A stretch of 64,000 nt of DNA from an uncultured Actinomycetota bacterium (GTDB lineage Bacteria; Actinomycetota; Actinomycetes; Propionibacteriales; Nocardioidaceae), in the NCBI GenBank assembly GCA_963815595.1, contig CAWFHA010000007.1, positions 1,079,121-1,143,120 on the forward strand, written 5' to 3'. The translations under genes and the position numbers were made by a program. The notes beneath the pieces are model-generated. The model searched no databases, was not told the DNA's origin, and saw only the letters and a program-made list of their open reading frames with translations. This document shows positions 34,456 through 44,675 of this stretch, piece after piece. Within the stretch, counting starts at the first letter, position 1; the number at the start of each line of letters is the position of its first letter.

Positions 34456-34992
34456 TCAGTCGTGCCCGGCGTGGAAGCCAGCGAGCCGGGCGGTGCCGGC
34501 GTCGAGGTCCGGCCACGCCACGTGCACGTCGAGCACGGCCATCGCGGAGGTCGGGAACCCGGCGGTCATCGACCGGAACGCCTCCGGGTCGGGGTCGCCG
34601 TCGTCGAGCAGGTGGGCCAGGGACGCCGCGGTGGGGTTGTGGCCGACGTACACCACCACCTCGCTGCCGCCGGGGACCGCCCGCAGCAGGTCCAGGACGT
34701 TGTCGGGACCCGCGGAGTAGACGGCGTCGCTCAGGTCGGGTGCGAGGTCGGTCCCGGCCGCCGAGGCGAGATGCGTCCACGTCTCCACCGCCCGGGTCGC
34801 GGAGGACACCAGGGCGTGGGTCGGGACCAGGTCGCGCTCGCGGAGCCACCGCCCCGCCGCCTCGGCCTCCCGCACGCCCCGGTCGGTGAGGCGTCGCCGG
34901 TGGTCCTCGGCCGCGAACGCCTCCGCCTTGGCGTGGCGCATGATCACCAGCACCCGTCGGGGCGACGAGGACGCGGGGGAAGGAGGGCTCAC
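34456..34992 (-). CDS. sixA: SixA-family phosphohistidine phosphatase
   Basis: IMRHAKAE, SSATRAVET, VGHNP. Confidence 0.85.
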   Translation of the reverse strand: MSPPSPASSSPRRVLVIMRHAKAEAFAAEDHRRRLTDRGVREAEAAGRWLRERDLVPTHALVSSATRAVETWTHLASAAGTDLAPDLSDAVYSAGPDNVLDLLRAVPGGSEVVVYVGHNPTAASLAHLLDDGDPDPEAFRSMTAGFPTSAMAVLDVHVAWPDLDAGTARLAGFHAGHD

Positions 34993-35026
34993 GGATGCCA
35001 ATGTCCCACCCCTTAGGCTTCCTGTC

Positions 35027-36010
35027 ATGCCAATGGGAGCCGACGGTCGCAGCGGGAGCGGCGGTGCGGGCGACCTGCTGGTCATCGGCGGCGCCGAGGA
35101 CAAGCTGGGCAAGCGCACCGTGCTGGGCGAGTTCGTGGCCCGGGCCGGTGGGTCCGAGGCACGGATCGCCGTCGTCCCCACCGCCTCCTCGCTGGGCCCG
35201 GAGATCGTCGAGGTCTACGAGGCCCTGTTCACCCGCCTGGGGGCGGCCGAGGTGTACGGCGTGCGCCCCGAGGACCGGGCCGCCGCGGCGGCGCCGGACC
35301 TCGTCGCCGAGCTGGACCGGGCCACCGGCATCTTCATGACCGGCGGCAACCAGCTCAAGCTGTCCACGGTGATCGCCGGCACCCCGTTCGGCGAGGCCAT
35401 CGTGCAGGCCCGGGACCGGGGCGTGACCGTGGGTGGCACGTCGGCCGGGGCCAGCATCCAGTCCTCGCACATGGTCGCCTTCGGACCCGGCGGGTCGACT
35501 CCCAAGCAGCGGATGACCCAGGTCGCCGCCGGTCTGGGGCTGGTGGAGAACTGCGTGATCGACCAGCACTTCGCCCAGCGCAACCGCTACGGACGGCTGC
35601 TGATGATCGTCGCGCAGAGCCCGCAGCTGCTGGGCATGGGCGTCGACGAGGACACGGCGGCGGTCATCTCCCGGTCCGAGGACCGGGACCTGCTGCACGT
35701 CGTCGGGCGCGGGTCGGTGACCCTGCTGGACGGCAGCCAGATGGTGACCAACGCGCACGAGGCCCGTGAGCGCCGGCCGATCCTGGCCTCGGGGGTGGTC
35801 CTGCACTCCCTGCCCGCGGGCGCCGGCTTCGACCTCACCTCCCGCACCCTGCTGCCACCCGCGGCCGAGCCCGACCCGTCCGAGGCCGACGAGCTGGCGC
35901 TAGCCGGTCGAGACCTGCGCAAGATGGCCCGGGACATCGCCGCCGGCGACGTCTCCCCCACGGCGCTGCGGCGCCGGATCGCCCGACGCACCAGAGGAGC
36001 TGCCCAGTGA
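35027..36010 (+). CDS. cphB: Cyanophycinase
   Basis: IGGAEDK, TGGNQ, GTSAGA (Ser), IDQHF (His), DEDTA; immediately upstream of cphA. Confidence 0.9.
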   Translation: MPMGADGRSGSGGAGDLLVIGGAEDKLGKRTVLGEFVARAGGSEARIAVVPTASSLGPEIVEVYEALFTRLGAAEVYGVRPEDRAAAAAPDLVAELDRATGIFMTGGNQLKLSTVIAGTPFGEAIVQARDRGVTVGGTSAGASIQSSHMVAFGPGGSTPKQRMTQVAAGLGLVENCVIDQHFAQRNRYGRLLMIVAQSPQLLGMGVDEDTAAVISRSEDRDLLHVVGRGSVTLLDGSQMVTNAHEARERRPILASGVVLHSLPAGAGFDLTSRTLLPPAAEPDPSEADELALAGRDLRKMARDIAAGDVSPTALRRRIARRTRGAAQ

Positions 36011-38817
36011 CCAGGAGCGCCGACGAACGCACCGCCGTGAGCTCGGGCGGACGGCCCACCGCCGACCTCGCCATCGTCGAGACGCGGGTCTACCGCGGCG
36101 CCAACGTGTGGTCCTACGACAAGGCGATCCACCTCGTCGTCGACCTCGGGGTGCTGGAGGACTTCCCCACCAACACGATCCCGGGCTTCACCGACCACCT
36201 CGTCGACGCGCTGCCCGGGCTGCGCGAGCACACCTGCTCCCGGGGACGACGCGGCGGCTTCCTCGAGCGGCTGCACGAGGGCACCTGGCTGGGCCACGTC
36301 GCCGAGCACGTCGCCCTCGCACTGCAGCAGGTCGTCGGCCACGACATCCGGCGGGGCAAGACCCGGCAGGTCAAGGGCGAGCGCGGCCGCTACAACGTCA
36401 TCTACGGCTACGTCGACGAGCAGGTGGGGCTCGAGGCCGGCCGGCTCGCCGTCCGGCTGGTCAACCACCTCGTGGAGGCCGACCCGGACTTCGACTTCAC
36501 CGACGAGCTCGACGCGTTCATCCTGCGGGCCCAGCGCACCGCCTTCGGGCCCTCCACCCAGGCGATCCTCGACGAGGCGGTCTCGCGCGACATCCCGTGG
36601 ATCCGGCTGAACAAGCACTCGCTCGTCCAGCTCGGCCAGGGCGTCCACGCCAAGCGCATCCGGGCCACGATGACGTCGGAGACCAGCTCCATCGCCGTCG
36701 ACATCGCCTCCGACAAGGACCTGACCACCCGGCTGCTCGGCGCCGCGGGCCTGCCCGTGCCGCGCCAGGAGTCGGTGCGCACCGCCGAGCAGGCGGCCAC
36801 CGTCGCCCGCAGGATCGGGTTCCCGGTGGTGGTCAAGCCGCTCGACGGCAACCACGGGCGCGGGGTGTGCCTCGACCTCCAGGACGAGGACGAGGTCCGG
36901 GAGGCGTTCGCCGTCGCCGAGGAGCAGTCGCGCCGCGGCTGGGTGATCGTGGAGTCGTTCATCACCGGCAAGGACTACCGGTGCCTGATCATCGACGGGC
37001 GCCTCGCCGCCATCGCCGAACGCGTGCCCGCCCACGTCATCGGCGACGGCACCTCGACGGTGCGTGCCCTGGTCGACCTGACCAACGCCGACCCACGACG
37101 CGGTGTGGGCCACGAGAAGATCCTCACCCGGATCAAGGCCGACGCCGCCGCCGAGGCGGTGCTCGCCGACCAGGGTCACACCCTGGACTCCGTGCCCGCC
37201 GAGGGCGAGATGGTCAAGCTGGCGCTGACCGGCAACATGTCGACCGGCGGCATCTCGATCGACCGCACCTTCGAGGCCCACCCGGAGAACGCGGAGATCG
37301 CCGAGGAGGCAGCCCGCATGGTCGGGTTGGACATCGCGGGCATCGACTTCATCTGCCCCGACATCACCCAGCCGGTCCGCGAGACCGGCGGCGCGATCTG
37401 CGAGGTCAACGCGGCCCCGGGCTTCCGGATGCACACCCACCCCACGATCGGCGAGCCGCAGTTCATCGCCAAGCCGGTCGTGGACATGCTGTTCCCACCC
37501 GGGGCTCCCAGCCGGATCCCGATCGTCGCCGTGACCGGCACCAACGGCAAGACCACGACCAGCCGGATGATCAGCCACATCTTCAAGGGCATGGGGCGCA
37601 AGGTCGGCATGACCTCCACCGACGGCGTGGTCATCGACGAGCGGCTGCTGATCCGGGCCGACGCCTCGGGCCCGCGCAGCGCGCGCATGGTCCTGCAGAA
37701 CCCACGGGTGGACTTCGCGGTCTTCGAGGTGGCGCGCGGCGGCATCCTGCGCGAGGGACTCGGCTACGAGCGCAACGACGTCGCCGTCGTGCTCAACGTC
37801 CAGCCCGACCACCTGGGGCTGCGCGGCATCGACACCGTCGAGCAGCTCGCGAACGTCAAGGCGGTGCTGGTCGAGGCCGTGCCGCGGGACGGGCACGCGG
37901 TGCTGAACGCCGACGACCCCCTGGTCCGGGAGATGCGGCGCCGCTGCTCGGGGCAGGTCGTGTGGTTCTCCATGGAGGAGCCGGGCACCGAGGCCCGTGA
38001 CCTGATCGACGCCCACTGCCGCCGTGGAGGCAAGGCGCTGGTCCTGCAGTCCACGGAGCGCGGCGAGATGATCGTCGTGCGGCACGGGGCCCGGGACATG
38101 CAGCTGGCGTTCACCCACCTGCTGCCCGCGACCTTCTCGGGCCGTGCGCGGATGAACGTGCAGAACGCGCTGGCCTCCGCGGCGGCGGCGTTCGCTGTCG
38201 GCGCGCCGCTGCACGACATCCGCCAGGGCCTGCGGACGTTCTCCACCAGCTACTACCTCTCCCCCGGCCGGCTCAACGAGCTCGAGGTCAACGGCGTCAC
38301 CGTCATCGTCGACTACTGCCACAACGCTCCGGGCATGCGAGCGCTCGGCGACTTCGTCGACCGGGTCGGCGAGACCCTCGACTCGGGCTACGACCTCGGC
38401 AAGCCCTCCCGGATCGGCGTCATCGCCACGGCCGGCGACCGGCGTGACGAGGACATGCGGGAGCTCGGCGAGGTCGCGGCGCGCCACTTCGACGTGGTCA
38501 TCGTGCGCGAGGACCAGGCCCTGCGGCGCCGCGAGCGCGGCGTCACCGCCGCCCTGGTCGCCGAGGGGGTCCGGGAGGCGATGGACGACGGCGCGCGGTG
38601 CAAGCAGCTGGAGGTGATCGTCGACGAGATCGAGGCCGTCCACCACGCGATGAGCCGGGCCAACCGTGGCGACCTCGTCGTGGTCTGCGTCGACCAGCAC
38701 CCGCTGGTGATGACCGAGCTGGAGAACTGGTCGCCGATGGCCCAGGCCGGGGCGTCGTACGCCGGCGACGACACGCACGTCGCCGACCCGGACTACACCC
38801 CGCCGCCGGAGTCCTGA
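36007..38817 (+). CDS. cphA: Cyanophycin synthetase CphA1 (N + ATP-grasp + Mur-ligase domains)
   Basis: Cx19HxxEH in N domain; VVKPLDGNHGRGV, EVNAAPGFRMH; GTNGKTT; DYCHN; GTGA overlap with cphB. Confidence 0.95.
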   Translation: MTRSADERTAVSSGGRPTADLAIVETRVYRGANVWSYDKAIHLVVDLGVLEDFPTNTIPGFTDHLVDALPGLREHTCSRGRRGGFLERLHEGTWLGHVAEHVALALQQVVGHDIRRGKTRQVKGERGRYNVIYGYVDEQVGLEAGRLAVRLVNHLVEADPDFDFTDELDAFILRAQRTAFGPSTQAILDEAVSRDIPWIRLNKHSLVQLGQGVHAKRIRATMTSETSSIAVDIASDKDLTTRLLGAAGLPVPRQESVRTAEQAATVARRIGFPVVVKPLDGNHGRGVCLDLQDEDEVREAFAVAEEQSRRGWVIVESFITGKDYRCLIIDGRLAAIAERVPAHVIGDGTSTVRALVDLTNADPRRGVGHEKILTRIKADAAAEAVLADQGHTLDSVPAEGEMVKLALTGNMSTGGISIDRTFEAHPENAEIAEEAARMVGLDIAGIDFICPDITQPVRETGGAICEVNAAPGFRMHTHPTIGEPQFIAKPVVDMLFPPGAPSRIPIVAVTGTNGKTTTSRMISHIFKGMGRKVGMTSTDGVVIDERLLIRADASGPRSARMVLQNPRVDFAVFEVARGGILREGLGYERNDVAVVLNVQPDHLGLRGIDTVEQLANVKAVLVEAVPRDGHAVLNADDPLVREMRRRCSGQVVWFSMEEPGTEARDLIDAHCRRGGKALVLQSTERGEMIVVRHGARDMQLAFTHLLPATFSGRARMNVQNALASAAAAFAVGAPLHDIRQGLRTFSTSYYLSPGRLNELEVNGVTVIVDYCHNAPGMRALGDFVDRVGETLDSGYDLGKPSRIGVIATAGDRRDEDMRELGEVAARHFDVVIVREDQALRRRERGVTAALVAEGVREAMDDGARCKQLEVIVDEIEAVHHAMSRANRGDLVVVCVDQHPLVMTELENWSPMAQAGASYAGDDTHVADPDYTPPPES

Positions 38818-39701
38818 GCCGCCTGCTCGACCTTCTTGGCCGTGCGCTTGACCGCCTTCTTCGCGGCCTTCCTCGCCGGCTTCTTCTCCGGCTTGTCCTG
38901 GGGCTTGTCCTCGGGCTTGCTCTGGGACTTGCCCTGGGACTCCGCCTCCGGCTCCTTCGGGGCGCCTCGGCGCCGCTTCAGGCGCACCCAGAGCTGGCCG
39001 CGGCCGCTGCTGCCGGTGACGGTCTTGGTCTCGACGAACGGCTGGGCCTTGATGAGGTCGCTGAGCTTGGCGTGGCCGTAGCTGCGCGCGTCGAAGGACG
39101 GGTCCGTGCGGTTGATGTGGTTGCCGAGGGCGCTCAGCGACGCCCAGTCGTCGTCGTCGGAGTCCACCTTGTTCAGTGCCTTGGTCAGCACGCTCTGGAT
39201 CGCGCGCAGCTGCTCGGGCCCGGACGGCTCCGGGGCTTCCGACTGCTCGGTCGTGGACCCGACTCCCTGCAGCACCTCGAGGAAGACGAACTTCTCGCAG
39301 GCCTCCACGAACGCCTTGGGGGTCTTGCGCTGCCCGACGCCGATCACGCGCTTGCCCGACTCGCGGAGCCGGGTCGCGAGCGGGGTGAAGTCGCTGTCGC
39401 TGGAGACGATCGCGAACCCCTCGACGTTGCCTGAGTAGAGCAGGTCCATCGCGTCGATGATCAGCGCCGAGTCCGTCGCGTTCTTGCCGGCGGTGTAGGC
39501 GAACTGCTGCTGCGGTGAGATCGCGTTGCCCAGCAGGTGCTCCTTCCACCCGGAGAGGTGGTGGTTGGTCCAGTCGCCGTAGGCGCGCTTGACGGTGATG
39601 GTGCCGTAGCCGGCCAGCTCCTCGAACATCTCCTTGATCAGCTTCGGGGAGGTGTTGTCGGCGTCGATGAGCACCGCGATGCGGGTGTTGTCGTCGGTCA
39701 T
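38793..39701 (-). CDS. NYN-domain ribonuclease with LOTUS/OST-HTH domain and Lys-rich tail
   Basis: LIDADN, KRAYGDW, GKNATDSALIIDAMD, SSDSDF; FDARSYGHAKLSDL; KPARKAAKKAVK tail. Confidence 0.88.
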   Translation of the reverse strand: MTDDNTRIAVLIDADNTSPKLIKEMFEELAGYGTITVKRAYGDWTNHHLSGWKEHLLGNAISPQQQFAYTAGKNATDSALIIDAMDLLYSGNVEGFAIVSSDSDFTPLATRLRESGKRVIGVGQRKTPKAFVEACEKFVFLEVLQGVGSTTEQSEAPEPSGPEQLRAIQSVLTKALNKVDSDDDDWASLSALGNHINRTDPSFDARSYGHAKLSDLIKAQPFVETKTVTGSSGRGQLWVRLKRRRGAPKEPEAESQGKSQSKPEDKPQDKPEKKPARKAAKKAVKRTAKKVEQAAQDSGGGV

Positions 39702-41167
39702 GCGGGATGGCTCTCCTCGATGGGGGGACCGCCAGTCTCGCGCAGTCGCCCGACGTCGCGCAGGCCGACCCACGAGACCACGCCTCCCAGCGCGAGCATC
39801 GCGGCTGAGAGCAGCAGCGCTCGCTCGTAACCGGCGGTGAGCAGGCCGGGGTCGCTGTAGTCGGTCCCGGTGAGCCCGACCGCGGCAGGAAGTGCCGCGA
39901 CGGCCAGCAGGCTCCCCGTGCGGGCGACCGCGTTGTTGACCCCGCTCGCCACCCCGGCATGGTTGCCGGGGACCGCGGCGAGGACGGCCACCGTCAGCGG
40001 GGAGACCAGGGTGACCAGCCCCAGCGCGAACACGACGATCCCCGGGAACACCCCGGTCCAGTACGTCGTGTCCCGGTCGACCCCGCTGAGCAGGAAGACC
40101 CCGACGGCGCACACGATCGGCCCCACCGTCATCGGCACCCGCGGCCCCGTGCGGGCGAACAGCACCGAGAGCCGCGAGGAGAGGAGGACCATGATCACCG
40201 AGACCGGCACGGTGGCCACGCCGGCGGCGGTGGCGCCGTACCCGGTGGAGACCTGGAGCTGGAGCACCAGGAAGAACAGCACGGCGCCGAGGGCGCCGTA
40301 GACGAGCAGCGTCATCAGGTTCGCGGCGCTGAACACGCGGGAGGACCACATCGACAGCGGCGCCATGGCGCCCGGTCGCCTCTCGAACCACACGAACGCG
40401 GCTGCCGCCGCGACCGCCAGCACCAGCCCGACGACCAGGACTCCCGTGGGCAGCTCGCGCCACGAGGTGAGCAGGTAGGTGGTGGCGCCGAGCACCACGA
40501 TGCCCGACAGCGCGCCCCGGTAGTCGAAGCGCCGGGGAGCCTCGGCGTCGAGCGACTCCGGGATCCGGAGACCGAGCAGCAGCACCAGGGCGCACAGCGG
40601 CAGGTTGATCGCGAAGACCCAGCGCCACCCCGCGTTCTCGACCAGGAACCCGCCCAGGAACGGCCCGATCGCCACCGCGATGCCGGAGGCGCCTGCCCAG
40701 GTGCCGATGGCGGCCGGCCGATCCACCCGGCGGAAGGTCCCCTGGATCAGGGCCAGGGCCCCCGGGGTGAGCAGCGCCGCCGCCACCCCTTGGACGACCC
40801 GGAACAGAACCAGCTGGAACGGCGACTGGGCGAACGCGCACAGGGCACTGGCCGCGGCGAAGCCGGCGATCCCCATCAGGTAGACGCGCCGTCGCCCGAA
40901 GCGGTCGCCCAAGGCGCCCCCCACCAGGATCAGCGCCGCCAGGCTGACCAGGTAGCCGTTGGAGATCCACTGCAGCTCGACCAGCGAGGCGTCGAGGTCG
41001 GCACCGATGCGGCGCAGGGCGATGTTGACCACCGTGCCGTCGAGGATCGCGATGCTCGACCCGAGGGTCACCGTGAACAGGGTGAGCCTTCCGAGGGCCG
41101 AACGGCGGTCGAGCAGGCCGGACTCGTCCTCCCTGGGTTGACCGGGCTCAGGCGAGGGCTGCGGCAC
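39698..41167 (-). CDS. MFS transporter (DHA2-like, 14 TM)
   Basis: LDGTVVNIAL, GGALGDRFGRRR motif A, GPFLGGFL. Confidence 0.9.
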   Translation of the reverse strand: MPQPSPEPGQPREDESGLLDRRSALGRLTLFTVTLGSSIAILDGTVVNIALRRIGADLDASLVELQWISNGYLVSLAALILVGGALGDRFGRRRVYLMGIAGFAAASALCAFAQSPFQLVLFRVVQGVAAALLTPGALALIQGTFRRVDRPAAIGTWAGASGIAVAIGPFLGGFLVENAGWRWVFAINLPLCALVLLLGLRIPESLDAEAPRRFDYRGALSGIVVLGATTYLLTSWRELPTGVLVVGLVLAVAAAAAFVWFERRPGAMAPLSMWSSRVFSAANLMTLLVYGALGAVLFFLVLQLQVSTGYGATAAGVATVPVSVIMVLLSSRLSVLFARTGPRVPMTVGPIVCAVGVFLLSGVDRDTTYWTGVFPGIVVFALGLVTLVSPLTVAVLAAVPGNHAGVASGVNNAVARTGSLLAVAALPAAVGLTGTDYSDPGLLTAGYERALLLSAAMLALGGVVSWVGLRDVGRLRETGGPPIEESHPA

Positions 41168-42848
41168 GACGTACCTTCGCCCGGAGCACCTCCGGTGTGT
41201 CCGCCGTGGCTCCCTGTCCGGTGAGCCAGTCGTAGACCTGCTGCCGCTCCGCGTGGCACATCAGCCCCACCACGTCGCCAGGGGTCGCCTGCTCGACCAG
41301 GGCCTGGAGCGAAGCGAGCTCGGTGGGGTGGGCCGGGAGGTCCGTGACGCCCACCCGGGCCGCTCCGGCACGTAGCAGCGCCTCGAGCTCGGCGGTGGTG
41401 CGGCCGCGCAGGTAGTGCTCCTTGTGACCGATCACCACGACGTCGGCGTCCCGACCCGCGATCTCGCCGAGCATCTCCAGCAGGTCGTCCTGACGGTCGC
41501 CGACCGCACCCAGCCCGAGCAGCAGGCGGCAGCCGGGTGCGCGCAGGCCGCGCATGACCTCGATCATCGCCTCCAGCCCCACCTCGTTGTGCGCGAGGTC
41601 CATCACCACCGAGACCTCGCCGAGGCTGAAGATGTTCATCCGGCCGGGGTTGTGCTCGGCGTCGGGCAGGAAGGAGCGCAGCCCCGCGGCGACGTGCTCC
41701 CGGCCGATGCCGGCCGCCAGGGCCGCAGACGTGGCGGCCAGGGCGTTCTCGACGTTGAACCGGGAGAGCCCGCTCAACGTCATCGGCACGTCGACGACCT
41801 CCAGCACCGGGTCGACGCTGCCCCCGTCGAGCACGGTGATCCAGCCGTCGATGACCGTGGTCGCCCGGCCCCGGGCGTTGAGCACCTCGCGCAGTGCCGG
41901 CGAGTCGGGGTAGCGGGAGAAGACCCACGGGCGCGCTGGCGTGGTCAGCCGCATGGCGAAGACCCGCGGGTCGTCGGCGTTGAGCACCGCCCAGCCCGAC
42001 TTCTTGGTGATCCTCGGCACGACGCCCTTGACCTCGGCGAGCTGGTCCACGGTGTCGATGCCGTGCAGGCCCAGGTGGTCGGCGGTCACGTTGGTGACCA
42101 CGGAGACGTCGTTGCTGACCAGGCCGATCCCCTTGAGCAGGATCCCCCCGCGAGCGGTCTCGGTCACCGCGAAGTCCACCTCCCGGTGGGCGAGGACGCG
42201 TCCGGCGCCGGAGGGACCGGAGTAGTCACCGGCCTCCACCAGCACGCCGTCGACGTAGATGCCGTCGGTGTTGGACCAGCCGACCAGGTGACCGGCCTCC
42301 CGGGCGATGTGGGCGATCATCCGCGACGTGGTGGTCTTGCCGTTGGTACCGGTCACGGCCACCACGGGCACCCGCGGCCTGATCGTGGTGGGCCCCGGGC
42401 CGCGCTCGGCGGCCCGCACGTGCTCGGCCGCGCGCTCCACCAGGACGCCCACCTCCTGCGAGCCCAGCCCGTCGACCACCGAGGCCACCGCCTCGCCCAG
42501 GGCGCGCGCCCGGTTGCGGTCGCGCCACGGGTAGGCGACCACGATCCGCTGGGACTGGGAGGTCGACCGCACCCGGACCGCGAGGCGGGTGGTCCCCGAC
42601 TCCGCGGCGATCCGCCGCACCAGCCGGGTCACGAGGCGAGCCAGGGAACGCTGCCGGAAGCCGCTCATCGGGGCGTCGGCCCGCAACGAGCGCAGCCCGA
42701 GCCGATCCGCGAGTCGGCGTACGTCGGTCTCGGGCGCCTCGGCGAGCGAGGTCACGTCGAGGGTGAGCTTGATCGCGGCCCGGGGGAAGTACAGGTTGGG
42801 TCCCTCGAGGACCCTCAGCTCGACCAGGGCGGGGTCCCGGTCAGCCAC
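41148..42848 (-). CDS. CphA-like protein: degenerate N domain + Mur-ligase domain, no ATP-grasp
   Basis: ELRVLEGPNLY resembles the CphA N-terminus; GTNGKTTT, ETARGGIL, NVTADHLG, DLAHN; 566 aa versus 936 aa for CphA1. Confidence 0.8.
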   Translation of the reverse strand: MADRDPALVELRVLEGPNLYFPRAAIKLTLDVTSLAEAPETDVRRLADRLGLRSLRADAPMSGFRQRSLARLVTRLVRRIAAESGTTRLAVRVRSTSQSQRIVVAYPWRDRNRARALGEAVASVVDGLGSQEVGVLVERAAEHVRAAERGPGPTTIRPRVPVVAVTGTNGKTTTSRMIAHIAREAGHLVGWSNTDGIYVDGVLVEAGDYSGPSGAGRVLAHREVDFAVTETARGGILLKGIGLVSNDVSVVTNVTADHLGLHGIDTVDQLAEVKGVVPRITKKSGWAVLNADDPRVFAMRLTTPARPWVFSRYPDSPALREVLNARGRATTVIDGWITVLDGGSVDPVLEVVDVPMTLSGLSRFNVENALAATSAALAAGIGREHVAAGLRSFLPDAEHNPGRMNIFSLGEVSVVMDLAHNEVGLEAMIEVMRGLRAPGCRLLLGLGAVGDRQDDLLEMLGEIAGRDADVVVIGHKEHYLRGRTTAELEALLRAGAARVGVTDLPAHPTELASLQALVEQATPGDVVGLMCHAERQQVYDWLTGQGATADTPEVLRAKVRRAAALA

Positions 42849-42854
42849 GGGAGG

Positions 42855-43067
42855 TCAGTCGTCCTCGAGGCGGAACCCGACCTTGAGCCCGACCTGGAAG
42901 TGCTCCACGGCCCCGTCCTTGACCTGCCCACGCACCTGGGTCATCTCGAACCAGTCGACGTGGCGCAGGGTGCGGGCCGCCCGCTCGACCCCGTTGCGGA
43001 TGGCCTGGTCGATGCCCTCGGGCGAGGTGCCGACGATCTCGGTGACACGGTAGGTGCGGTTGGACAT
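42855..43067 (-). CDS. Dodecin (flavin-binding)
   Basis: MSNRTYRVTEIVGTS...DWFE...HFQVGLKVGFRL. Confidence 0.92.
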   Translation of the reverse strand: MSNRTYRVTEIVGTSPEGIDQAIRNGVERAARTLRHVDWFEMTQVRGQVKDGAVEHFQVGLKVGFRLEDD

Positions 43068-43168
43068 CGGCGGGCTCCTCGAGTGGGAAACAGTCGGACT
43101 GACCAAGGATGCCACGGGTGCTCGCGGGGCGGTCGGGCGCTGCACACCACCGACGTACGCTGGAGGAC

Positions 43169-43468
43169 GTGGCCACTTCCCGCCGGACGCGTGGCGAGAC
43201 CGAACCGGTCCGCATCACCACCGCCCCCACCAGCCGCCGCGACGACCTCGACCGTCGTCGGCGCCGCTACGTCATCTCGATGGCGGTCCGCACTCTGTGC
43301 TTCGTCGGTGCGGTCCTCGTCGGTCCCGGTTGGTTTCGCTGGGTCCTGGTGGTCGGGGCGTTCATCCTGCCCTACATCGCCGTGGTGATGGCCAACGCCG
43401 CCTCACCCCGCATCGAGGGTGCGGACCTGGTGCAGCCGGGTGGCAGCCACCGGGAGCTGGGCGGGTGA
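43169..43468 (+). CDS. DUF3099-family membrane protein
   Basis: RRRRYVISMAVRTLCF, LPYIAVVMAN; GGAGG RBS before GTG. Confidence 0.85.
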   Translation: MATSRRTRGETEPVRITTAPTSRRDDLDRRRRRYVISMAVRTLCFVGAVLVGPGWFRWVLVVGAFILPYIAVVMANAASPRIEGADLVQPGGSHRELGG

Positions 43469-43668
43469 GCGAGGACGCCGCCGCCGGTCAGGAGGTCTGC
43501 TCGGCGCGGGGTTGTCGGGCCGCGGCTCGCCACGAGCTGCGCTGGAACAACCCCAAGCTGCACACGCCCGAGCGCCGCAAGACCTGGCTGGCCTGCGACG
43601 AGCACCGCCAGAGCCTGGCCGACTTCCTCGCCGCCCGGAACTTCCTGCGCGAGGTCGAGCCGCACTAG
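43465..43668 (+). CDS. Small Cys/His-containing conserved actinobacterial protein
   Basis: CSARGC...WNNPKLHTPERRKTWLACDEH; GTGA overlap. Confidence 0.75.
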   Translation: MSEDAAAGQEVCSARGCRAAARHELRWNNPKLHTPERRKTWLACDEHRQSLADFLAARNFLREVEPH

Positions 43669-44675
43669 CCGCCGATCGCGGACATCGGCCGCGTCGGCTG
43701 GAGGAAGGTCTCGTCGTCGATGCCGTGACCCGGTCGCTTGGTCATCATCGCCAGCCGCCACCGGTCCGCGATCTCGTCGTCACCGGCACCGCCTCGCAGC
43801 GCGGCACGCAGGTCGGACTCCTCCCGGGCGAACAGGCAGTTGCGCACCTGGCCGTCGGCGGTGAGCCGCACCCGGTCGCAGTCCCCGCAGAAGGGTCGGG
43901 TGACCGAGGCGATCACCCCGACCTTGGCCGGGCCGCCGTCGACGAGGAACGTCTCGGCCGGGGCGCTGCCCCGGTGCTCGGGGTCGGGGGTCAGCGTGAA
44001 CTCGGACTCGAGCAGCGCGAAGATCTCCTCGGCGGTGACCATCCCCTCCCGCGACCAGCCGTGCTGGGCGTCGAGGGGCATCTGCTCGATGATGCGCAGC
44101 TGGTAGCCCTGCTCCAGGCACCAGGCCAGCAGCTCGGGGGCGTGCTGGTCGTTGATCCCCCGGATCAGCACGGCGTTGACCTTGACCGGGCCCAGGCCGG
44201 CGTCCCGGGCGGCCGCCAGGCCGGCCAGCACGTCGTCGAGCCGGTCCCGGCGCGTGATCTCGAGGAACTCCTCGCGCCGGATCGTGTCGAGGCTGACGTT
44301 GACCCGGTCGAGGCCGGCCGCGGCGAGGGTCCGCGCCGTGCGGGACAGCCCCAGGGCGTTGGTGGTCAGCGAGACCTCCGGGGTGGGGCGCAGCGCCTTG
44401 GTCTGCTCGACGATGCCGGCCAGGCCGCGGCGCAGCAGCGGCTCACCGCCGGTGAAGCGGACCTCGCGGATGCCCAGCTGCTCGACACCGATCCGGACGA
44501 GGCGGACCACCTCGTCGTCGGTGAGCGTCTCCTCCGTGGGCAGCCAGTCCAGGCCCTCCGCGGGCATGCAGTAGCTGCACCGCAGGTTGCAGCGGTCGGT
44601 GAGCGAGACTCGCAGGTCCGTGGCCGTCCGGCCATAGCTGTCCGCCAGTCCCGAGGTCGGCGTGGAAGTGCTCAC
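43665..44675 (-). CDS. moaA: GTP 3',8-cyclase
   Basis: CNLRCSYC radical-SAM motif, FCGDCDRVR, MSAIGG C-terminus. Confidence 0.97.
   Translation of the reverse strand: MSTSTPTSGLADSYGRTATDLRVSLTDRCNLRCSYCMPAEGLDWLPTEETLTDDEVVRLVRIGVEQLGIREVRFTGGEPLLRRGLAGIVEQTKALRPTPEVSLTTNALGLSRTARTLAAAGLDRVNVSLDTIRREEFLEITRRDRLDDVLAGLAAARDAGLGPVKVNAVLIRGINDQHAPELLAWCLEQGYQLRIIEQMPLDAQHGWSREGMVTAEEIFALLESEFTLTPDPEHRGSAPAETFLVDGGPAKVGVIASVTRPFCGDCDRVRLTADGQVRNCLFAREESDLRAALRGGAGDDEIADRWRLAMMTKRPGHGIDDETFLQPTRPMSAIGG

Follow-up and report, generated by a model that had tools for sequence, protein, structure and literature searches.

The stretch of DNA analyzed here, 64,000 nucleotides from an uncultured bacterium of the Nocardioidaceae (contig CAWFHA010000007.1; hereafter the window), encodes the cyanophycin synthetase CphA1, a cyanophycinase (CphB) and, on the opposite strand, a second CphA-like protein of 566 amino acids (aa). 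We consider it rather probable that this protein is a free-standing, catalytically competent ATP-dependent ligase of the CphA M-domain lineage, which acts on cyanophycin alongside CphA1, whereby it would probably perform a side-chain ligation step that has so far not been studied. This reading is based on the domain anatomy of the protein, on its intact catalytic residues, on its position within the CphA clade, and on the linkage of its gene to cphA1 and cphB across distant lineages.

The gene had originally been predicted from the window sequence as a CphA paralogue that lacks the ATP-grasp (G) domain and the primer-making site. The open reading frame (ORF) at 41148–42848 of the minus strand, which starts with GTG and encodes 566 aa, was found as described, and the quoted strings LVELRVLEGPNLYFPRAAIKLTLDV, GTNGKTT, ETARGGIL, and DLAHN all occur in its product, while the CphA1 string IVETRVYRGANVWSYDKAIHLVVDL occurs in the 936-aa cphA1 product (36007–38817, plus strand). 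The distance of 2.3 kb to cphA1 corresponds to the 2.33 kb between the two gene ends at 38817 and 41148. It was also correctly predicted that the N-terminus runs straight into the Mur-ligase domain, since the M domain starts at residue 158, directly after an N-terminal domain that we designate N'. The designation as an M-only ligase applies in part: the protein does contain a CphA-type M ligase, but it is an N plus M protein and not an M domain on its own.

The M Domain Is of the CphA Type and Retains the Catalytic Residues

Residues 158–566 constitute a complete CphA-type Mur-ligase (M) domain, which covers positions 3–375 of the 379 positions of a hidden Markov model (HMM) of CphA1 M domains, i.e., practically the full length. 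BLASTP comparison with the M domain of the neighboring CphA1 yielded 41% identity over 353 residues (E 4e-60), and among the sequences of solved structures residues 485–819 of CphA1 were the top match (E 1e-77). The NCBIfam cyanophycin synthetase model TIGR02068 is matched with 388.8 bits at model positions 476–849 only and its cutoff of 850 is missed, whereas the best MurE model reaches 104 bits (its cutoff is 373). The Pfam models Mur_ligase_M (72.9 bits, gathering cutoff 24) and Mur_ligase_C (43.8 bits, gathering cutoff 28.4, residues 402–530) are both recognized. An HMM of the protein's own family, which is described below, scores higher than the CphA1 M model (581 versus 400 bits), and the family N' model scores 146 bits.

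The residues that bind ATP and magnesium in CphA1 have their counterparts in the paralogue. These include the P-loop G167-TNGK171-T-T173 (with K499/T500 in TeCphA1), E230 (the Mg ligand E558), R403 (R731), and H420 (H748), of which R731 and H748 contact ATP in TeCphA1 (PMC9427784). Mutation of D585/H586 abolishes M activity in SuCphA1 (PMC9262961), and this pair is present as D257-H258. K274 aligns with K618 of the neighboring CphA1. In an alignment of 48 family members, which are 29–86% identical to the window protein, the P-loop Lys and Thr, E230, D257-H258, K274, R403, and H420-N421 are all invariant. F365 aligns with F692 of CphA1 and is not among the listed conserved columns of the family.

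The original prediction would have failed if the protein grouped with MurE, MurF, or FolC. This was analyzed in an M-domain tree with ten MurE sequences as outgroup, in which the protein clusters with the CphA M domains: 100 of 100 bootstraps unite the short proteins and the CphA1 M domains in one clade. The protein does share the Mur_ligase_M plus Mur_ligase_C fold, the P-loop, the DH pair, the conserved Lys, and the acyl-phosphate mechanism with MurC–F, FolC, MurT, and CapB. However, it differs from MurE and the other Mur ligases by its low model score (104 bits against cutoffs of at least 257), by its position outside the MurE outgroup (100/100), by a CphA-type N domain in place of the N-terminal domain that binds uridine diphosphate, and by the location of its gene, which is not in a dcw cluster.

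The N' Domain Has Lost the Zinc Site and the G Domain Is Absent

The N-terminal kinship to CphA1 is weak but real. Pairwise similarity to the neighboring CphA1 is low (BLASTP E 2e-4), residues 8–113 match an HMM of 21 CphA1 N domains with an E-value of 9.5e-7, and a profile–profile comparison with hhalign gave a probability of 96.9% (E 1.6e-10, 126 columns). The Pfam model PF18921 was not reached at E < 0.01 on the N-terminus. In the first hairpin of N' the residues R12, L14, G16, and N18 are invariant or nearly so within the family. The Cx19HxxEH zinc site, which is present in the neighboring CphA1, is missing as predicted: residues 1–157 contain no Cys and a single His, and HxxEH occurs in none of the 48 family members, compared to 18 of the 21 CphA1s. 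Neither the CphA1 G-domain HMM nor any Pfam ATP-grasp model matched the protein, which agrees with the predicted absence of the G domain. Since the ATP-grasp G domain of approximately 320 aa is absent, the protein cannot extend the Asp backbone, and since the zinc site is absent, it cannot cleave the polymer into primers.

The surface charge of N' was considered as a clue to the ligand but was rejected because its sign flips between clades. CphA1 N domains have a mean net charge of −3.

An AlphaFold2 model that was calculated with the family alignment as input has a mean predicted local distance difference test score of 95.6 and a predicted template modeling (TM) score of 0.93. Foldseek aligned this model to the CphA1 structures 7LGJ, 7LG5, 7LGQ, and 7WAE over approximately 880 alignment columns with query-normalized TM scores of 0.80–0.83, so that the N and M domains superpose together while the G domain is skipped. 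MurE structures gave TM scores of 0.52–0.55. Judged from the model, the protein is in effect a CphA1 from which the G domain has been excised and the zinc site of the N domain erased. In CphA1 the cyanophycin analogue at the M-site sits between N and Mcore (PMC9427784), so that with N'–M the protein has retained the whole module on which the M reaction depends.

The Mlid Loop Differs From That of CphA1

When the conservation of the short proteins was compared to that of CphA1, the Mlid loop in front of the RGR motif was the sole M-domain region with highly conserved positions that are not shared. The CphA1 loop reads [KR]-E-D-x-x-(L)-RGR, and its D is found in at least 90% of the sequences. 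In the short family this D is missing, the loop is one residue longer from the preceding strand to RGR, and a near-invariant Y479 is present. This loop lies at the place of the DNPR motif of MurE, which binds the incoming amino acid. Thus, it is presumably the amine pocket that has been changed in the short proteins, and the added amine may be an arginine that is bound in a different mode, or another amino acid or amine.

In the CphA1 of the window the corresponding segment (aa 834–842, positions 38506–38532) reads REDQALRRR. Most CphA1s, including most of those from Nocardioidaceae, have RED..LRGR, and the RRR variant is found in a few relatives.

The Protein Belongs to a Widespread Family

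Homology searches yielded 7726 homologues at E ≤ 1e-10, the closest of which are 72–94% identical and derive from Nocardioidaceae (Marmoricola/Nocardioides) from soil. When 1.84 billion cluster representatives were searched exhaustively, 1311 proteins were obtained at E ≤ 1e-30, many of which have a size of 520–600 aa and align end to end with the window protein down to approximately 36% identity; with members at 29–40% identity the full-length alignment still holds. The family is characterized by a length of about 520–615 aa and by an N' domain that has diverged, lacks HxxEH, and is directly joined to a full CphA-type M domain, all of which also applies to the window protein. Named members from Actinomycetota belong to Nocardioidaceae, Microlunatus, and Antricoccus, those from Myxococcota to Nannocystis, Nannocystaceae, and Kofleriaceae. 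In databases they are called "Mur ligase family protein", "UDP-N-acetylmuramyl tripeptide synthase", or "hypothetical protein", and in JGI "cyanophycin synthetase".

In the M-domain tree the short proteins are separated from the full-length CphA1s as a group of their own, which comprises three subclades. With the MurE outgroup, the short family by itself was recovered as monophyletic in 43 of 100 bootstraps, at a position among the CphA1 lineages. The family is therefore an old CphA offshoot that has lost the G domain, neither a Mur/FolC ligase nor a recent deletion variant of the adjacent gene. It is large as well as old, and the window protein did not arise recently from the neighboring cphA1. 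Within Nocardioidaceae its conservation of approximately 70–94% resembles that of neighboring housekeeping genes, and the gene is under purifying selection. A description of the family was not found in the full-text literature on CphA1, CphA2, and cyanophycin bioinformatics, whereby subscription papers were outside the scope of this search. The family is a widespread and uncharacterized third type of CphA-derived enzyme.

A second kind of CphA protein without a G domain, or with a remnant of it, was observed as well (P0240, P0185, P0180, P0213, P0174, P0176, P0184, P0211, P0238; loci L172 and L173, the contexts of which end at contig borders). These proteins have 560–660 aa, a strong CphA1-type N domain (Pfam Cyanophycin_syn; HMM E-values down to 1e-60), at most about 45–60 residues of G, and a full M domain. 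Since they occur at scattered positions inside the CphA1 clade when M domains are compared in a tree, G seems to have been lost several times independently.

The Gene Is Linked to cphA1 and cphB in Distant Lineages

At 77 of the 95 loci that carry the short gene, the flanking sequence that was retrieved contains a full cphA1. In lineages that share only 35–55% identity an (iadA)-cphB-cphA1-short operon is frequent. In Myxococcota including Nannocystis exedens (a contig of 11.3 Mb), the genes iadA (TIGR01975, 392 bits, cutoff 331), cphB, cphA1, and the short gene follow each other on one strand. At locus L082, cphB is followed at some distance by cphA1, the short gene, an M20 peptidase gene, and an amidohydrolase gene, where 4 nt separate the short gene from cphA1, and locus L170 has the order short-thioesterase-cphB-cphA1. 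The short gene is convergent with cphA1-cphB at three loci (L086, L123, L171), and at six metagenomic loci it directly follows cphA1 on the same strand (L089, L097, L101, L110, L111, L117) with products that are 36–40% identical to any reference. That the proximity is kept while gene order and orientation vary argues for selection on the linkage. The genome scan yielded Nocardioidaceae only, and the metagenome scan, which was carried out with a clade-2b alignment, returned mostly CphA1 and MurE loci because of shared peptide patterns; short genes surfaced beside the CphA1 matches.

The CphA1s next to short genes keep their own P-loop, DH pair, and RED..(L)RGR loop, and 69 of 77 keep Cx19HxxEH. 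Thus, the short enzyme seems to add something rather than to replace a dead domain, and a role as a stand-in for an inactive CphA1 M domain or for a missing primer site was rejected. It was likewise rejected that the protein is one half of a split CphA, since the G-domain HMM matches only full-length cphA1 ORFs at all loci and no separate ATP-grasp gene is present there.

Orthologous M20 metallopeptidase genes were noticed beside or near the short gene at four diverged loci (L082:11661–12863, plus strand; L171:4098–5336, minus strand; L086:2188–3381, minus strand; L123:8020–9153, minus strand). Their products are 46–55% identical to each other, and the best NCBIfam model is "glutamate carboxypeptidase" with 269 bits, which is below its cutoff. 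No copy of this gene occurs in the window or at the Nocardioidaceae loci. The M20 proteins could be beta-aspartyl dipeptidases that have not been recognized as such, or they could hydrolyze the bond formed by the short ligase.

Proposed Function and Alternative Explanations

Once an Asp has been added to the C-terminus of the chain, the M domain of CphA1 phosphorylates its beta-carboxylate, to which it then ligates Arg; what the original prediction stated on the activities of CphA1 and CphA2 is in line with the literature (PMC9427784, PMC9262961, PMC10273328). By homology to this reaction and from the gene neighborhood, we infer the polymer substrate, the activated carboxylate, and the kind of amine for the short enzyme as follows. 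The groove between N' and Mcore would bind a cyanophycin chain or a fragment of it. ATP, held by the P-loop residues K171/T173 together with E230, R403, and H420, would phosphorylate a free carboxylate of the polymer, most likely the beta-carboxylate of an Asp without an attached side chain, e.g., the one at the C-terminus. The attack would then come from an amine that the Mlid loop holds near Y479-L-R481-G-R, which would result in an isopeptide bond; because the loop differs from that of CphA1, this amine may differ from arginine or may be bound differently. The enzyme would act alongside CphA1, not instead of it, within the cphB-cphA1 cluster. That a CphA-type M ligase acts on cyanophycin, perhaps with an amino acid other than Arg, had already been suggested by the original prediction, and this suggestion is strengthened by the invariant catalytic residues, by the linkage to cphA1 and cphB in distant lineages, and by the altered loop.

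Several observations weigh against this reading. The equivalents of S603 and E607, M-domain residues that touch cyanophycin at the N-site of SuCphA1 (PMC9262961), are G275 and R279 in the window protein. N' carries a net charge of +4 to +8 in the window protein and those closest to it, compared to −7 to −18 in most of the remaining family, and is thus not conserved in charge. The placement of the gap in the Mlid loop varies with the alignment. At two loci (L081 and L169) no cphA1 was found within 8–10 kb of the short gene. The linkage within Nocardioidaceae, where cphA1-cphB is present at 68 of 80 loci and usually lies tail to tail with the short gene, sits within a larger syntenic block (serB ... 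moaA, ABC genes), and these 68 loci count approximately as one observation because the wider block is shared. Furthermore, a search of sequencing runs retrieved the sequence of the gene from metagenomic DNA runs only.

As an extension of the proposed function, Actinomycetota and Myxococcota might make an unrecognized modified cyanophycin, whereby the short enzyme would add a non-arginine or second-layer residue to free carboxylates and the M20 hydrolase would remove it again. Candidate sites would be Asp beta-carboxylates that have stayed bare or, where arginine is attached as a side chain, its alpha-carboxylate. We regard this idea as conceivable but doubtful. If it is true, the modification would alter the solubility, the charge, or the cyanophycinase susceptibility of the polymer, and the enzyme would represent a third biosynthetic activity in cyanophycin metabolism.

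It seems rather unlikely that the protein is a Mur-type ligase whose substrate has no relation to cyanophycin (another poly-acid, a cofactor tail, or a cell-wall peptide would be examples), and that the proximity to cphA1 merely reflects its origin by tandem duplication. The two loci without a nearby cphA1 would fit such a ligase, as would the translational coupling of the window gene to dodecin and MFS genes instead of cphA1 and the divergence of the substrate loop and the N' surface. However, the linkage survives down to 35–40% identity and is seen in two phyla despite several rearrangements, where a passive duplicate would have dispersed, and the only recurring partners are cphA1, cphB, and dipeptidase-type genes.

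Alternatively, free Asp or very short peptides could be the substrates to whose beta-carboxylate the enzyme ligates Arg. The resulting beta-Asp-Arg or short oligomers would seed or feed the synthesis of cyanophycin, and long chains would not be acted on. This chemistry is that of the M domain, the gene is linked to cphA1, and the first steps of CphA1 are very slow and primer-dependent (PMC9262961). However, there is no apparent gap in the primer supply, given that Cx19HxxEH is kept in most neighboring CphA1s (69/77), the N' domain has been retained although the known role of the CphA1 N domain is to hold the polymer, and the G domain of CphA1 uses Asp and not the dipeptide (PMC10273328). We therefore judge a primer or dipeptide synthetase to be unlikely.

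A non-catalytic partner that binds cyanophycin or CphA1 as a regulator, scaffold, or granule organizer is quite improbable. There are precedents for silent domains in the M and N domains of CphA2 (PMC10273328), of which the inactive M domain has a structural role, and the Mcore of CphA1 takes part in oligomer contacts (PMC9427784). Yet the ATP, Mg, and catalytic residues do not vary in sequences as little as 29% identical, which would be unexpected for a silent domain, whereas the M domain of CphA2 is truncated (PMC10273328). That a duplicated cphA1 has decayed and left this gene as a pseudogene, or that the gene is an ORF-calling artefact, as many long spurious ORFs arise in high-GC DNA, is practically refuted by the conservation data, i.e., the intact frame, thousands of full-length homologues, the invariant catalytic sites, and the deep divergence from CphA1, besides the confidently predicted fold.

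Gene Neighborhood in the Window and in Nocardioidaceae

The features of the locus are summarized in Table 1, in which the Mcore boundary was placed by analogy with Mcore 488–723 of TeCphA1 (PMC9427784).

Table 1. Coordinates of the short gene, its domains and motifs, and its neighbors in the window.
Feature	Position	Strand	Remarks
cphB, cyanophycinase	34886–36010	+	TIGR02069 237.2 bits (cutoff 126.6); Peptidase_S51
cphA1, full-length cyanophycin synthetase 1, 936 aa	36007–38817	+	TIGR02068 1171.7 bits (cutoff 850); convergent with the short gene
NYN plus OST-HTH/LOTUS protein gene	38793–39701	−	Lys/Pro/Glu-rich tail; between cphA1 and the MFS gene
MFS transporter gene	39698–41167	−	Pfam MFS_1 E 1.7e-45; directly downstream of the short gene
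Gene for the 566-aa CphA paralogue without G domain (predicted N'–M ligase)	41148–42848	−	GTG start, stop codon included; from the ORF listing
N' domain, aa 1–157	42378–42848	−	CphA-type N domain, diverged; Cx19HxxEH zinc site lost
P-loop G167-T-N-G-K171-T-T173	42330–42350	−	equivalent to TeCphA1 P-loop 495–501 with K499/T500; family-invariant
Mcore, aa 158–395, ATP-binding/catalytic core of the Mur-ligase-type domain	41664–42377	−	aligns with SuCphA1 485–723, E 1e-77
Catalytic D257-H258	42075–42080	−	aligns with SuCphA1 D585/H586; family-invariant
Mlid, aa 396–566, C-terminal Mur-ligase domain	41151–41663	−	R403 (PGRMN), D417, H420, N421 (DLAHN); family-invariant
Mlid loop G474-HKEHYLRGR-483	41400–41429	−	candidate incoming-amine specificity loop
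Dodecin gene	42855–43145	−	Pfam Dodecin E 1e-27; likely start 43067; directly upstream of the short gene

The cphA1 gene of the window, which comes after cphB, encodes a product with the Pfam domains Cyanophycin_syn, ATP-grasp, and Mur_ligase_M/C, in which Cx19HxxEH, the P-loop, and the DH pair are all present. The true start of cphB is probably located further downstream than the listed ORF start. The short gene is part of a tight minus-strand array of dodecin, short, MFS, and NYN/OST-HTH genes: the dodecin stop lies 6 nt ahead of the GTG start, and the listed MFS start overlaps the 3' end of the short gene by 20 nt. The MFS and NYN genes were found at only 8 of the 80 Nocardioidaceae loci, all from the sub-clade of the window, and look like an insertion that is specific to it. 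In most Nocardioides (loci L010–L080; e.g., L010:8410–9940, plus strand) fabG (mabA-like) and an inhA-like enoyl-ACP reductase gene are located between dodecin and the short gene, and the sub-clade of the window does not have fabG-inhA at that place. Dodecin and MFS as conserved partners were therefore rejected, since fabG-inhA intervene in most Nocardioides and MFS/NYN occur in 8 of 80 loci. At locus L169 the short gene is followed by moaA (L169:9810–10835, plus strand), and moaA is also near the short gene in the window (43665–44675, minus strand) and in Nocardioidaceae, so that an earlier gene arrangement may have left its mark here.

The G+C content of the window is 70–77%, and very long ORFs run antisense to real genes, e.g., at 35587–39960 (minus strand; 1457 aa, opposite cphA1) and at 41415–43388 (plus strand). 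These antisense ORFs are typical artefacts of DNA with about 72% G+C and do not represent genes.

Comparison With Known Systems and Significance

With CphA1, represented by the structures from Synechocystis sp. UTEX2470 (7LG5/7LGJ/7LGQ) and Trichodesmium (7WAE), the short protein shares the N fold, a complete M domain (Mcore and Mlid) with identical ATP, Mg, and catalytic residues, the relative orientation of N and M, the M clade, and the gene cluster. It differs from CphA1 by the missing G domain, the missing Cx19HxxEH, the altered Mlid loop, and the TIGR02068 score below the cutoff. CphA2 is likewise a simplified CphA paralogue with an N domain without HxxEH and a single catalytic domain; its G domain is active, its M domain is inactive and truncated (approximately 150 residues), and it polymerizes beta-Asp-Arg (PMC10273328). 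Judged from its sequence, the short protein would be the mirror image of CphA2, with a full and apparently active M domain and no G domain. Tandem cphA pairs from metagenomes (L096, L100, L105–L107, L109, L114, L119) resemble the arrangement in that a cphA1 cluster carries an extra, partly degenerate CphA paralogue, but here the extra copy keeps G and has a weak M domain (116–160 bits, 369 in L096, against approximately 430–460 in the partner), which is the opposite reduction. Within these pairs the first copy has a strong N and a weak M domain and the second copy a weak N and a full M domain, a different division of labor.

In metagenomes, cphA counts are inflated because KO-style pipelines label such short proteins "cyanophycin synthetase", as the JGI names illustrate, although they are unable to build the backbone. 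The function proposed here is directly testable, since CphA1 assays, primers, and structural methods already exist, and the production of the tailored cyanophycins that are sought as biomaterials would profit from a side-chain ligase that works on its own. Cyanophycin metabolism currently comprises two synthetases (CphA1 and CphA2), cyanophycinases, and dipeptidases. A third CphA-derived enzyme in the same clusters of soil Actinomycetota and Myxococcota would point to an unstudied step in this metabolism, which may be the completion of side chains, or the diversification or capping of the polymer.

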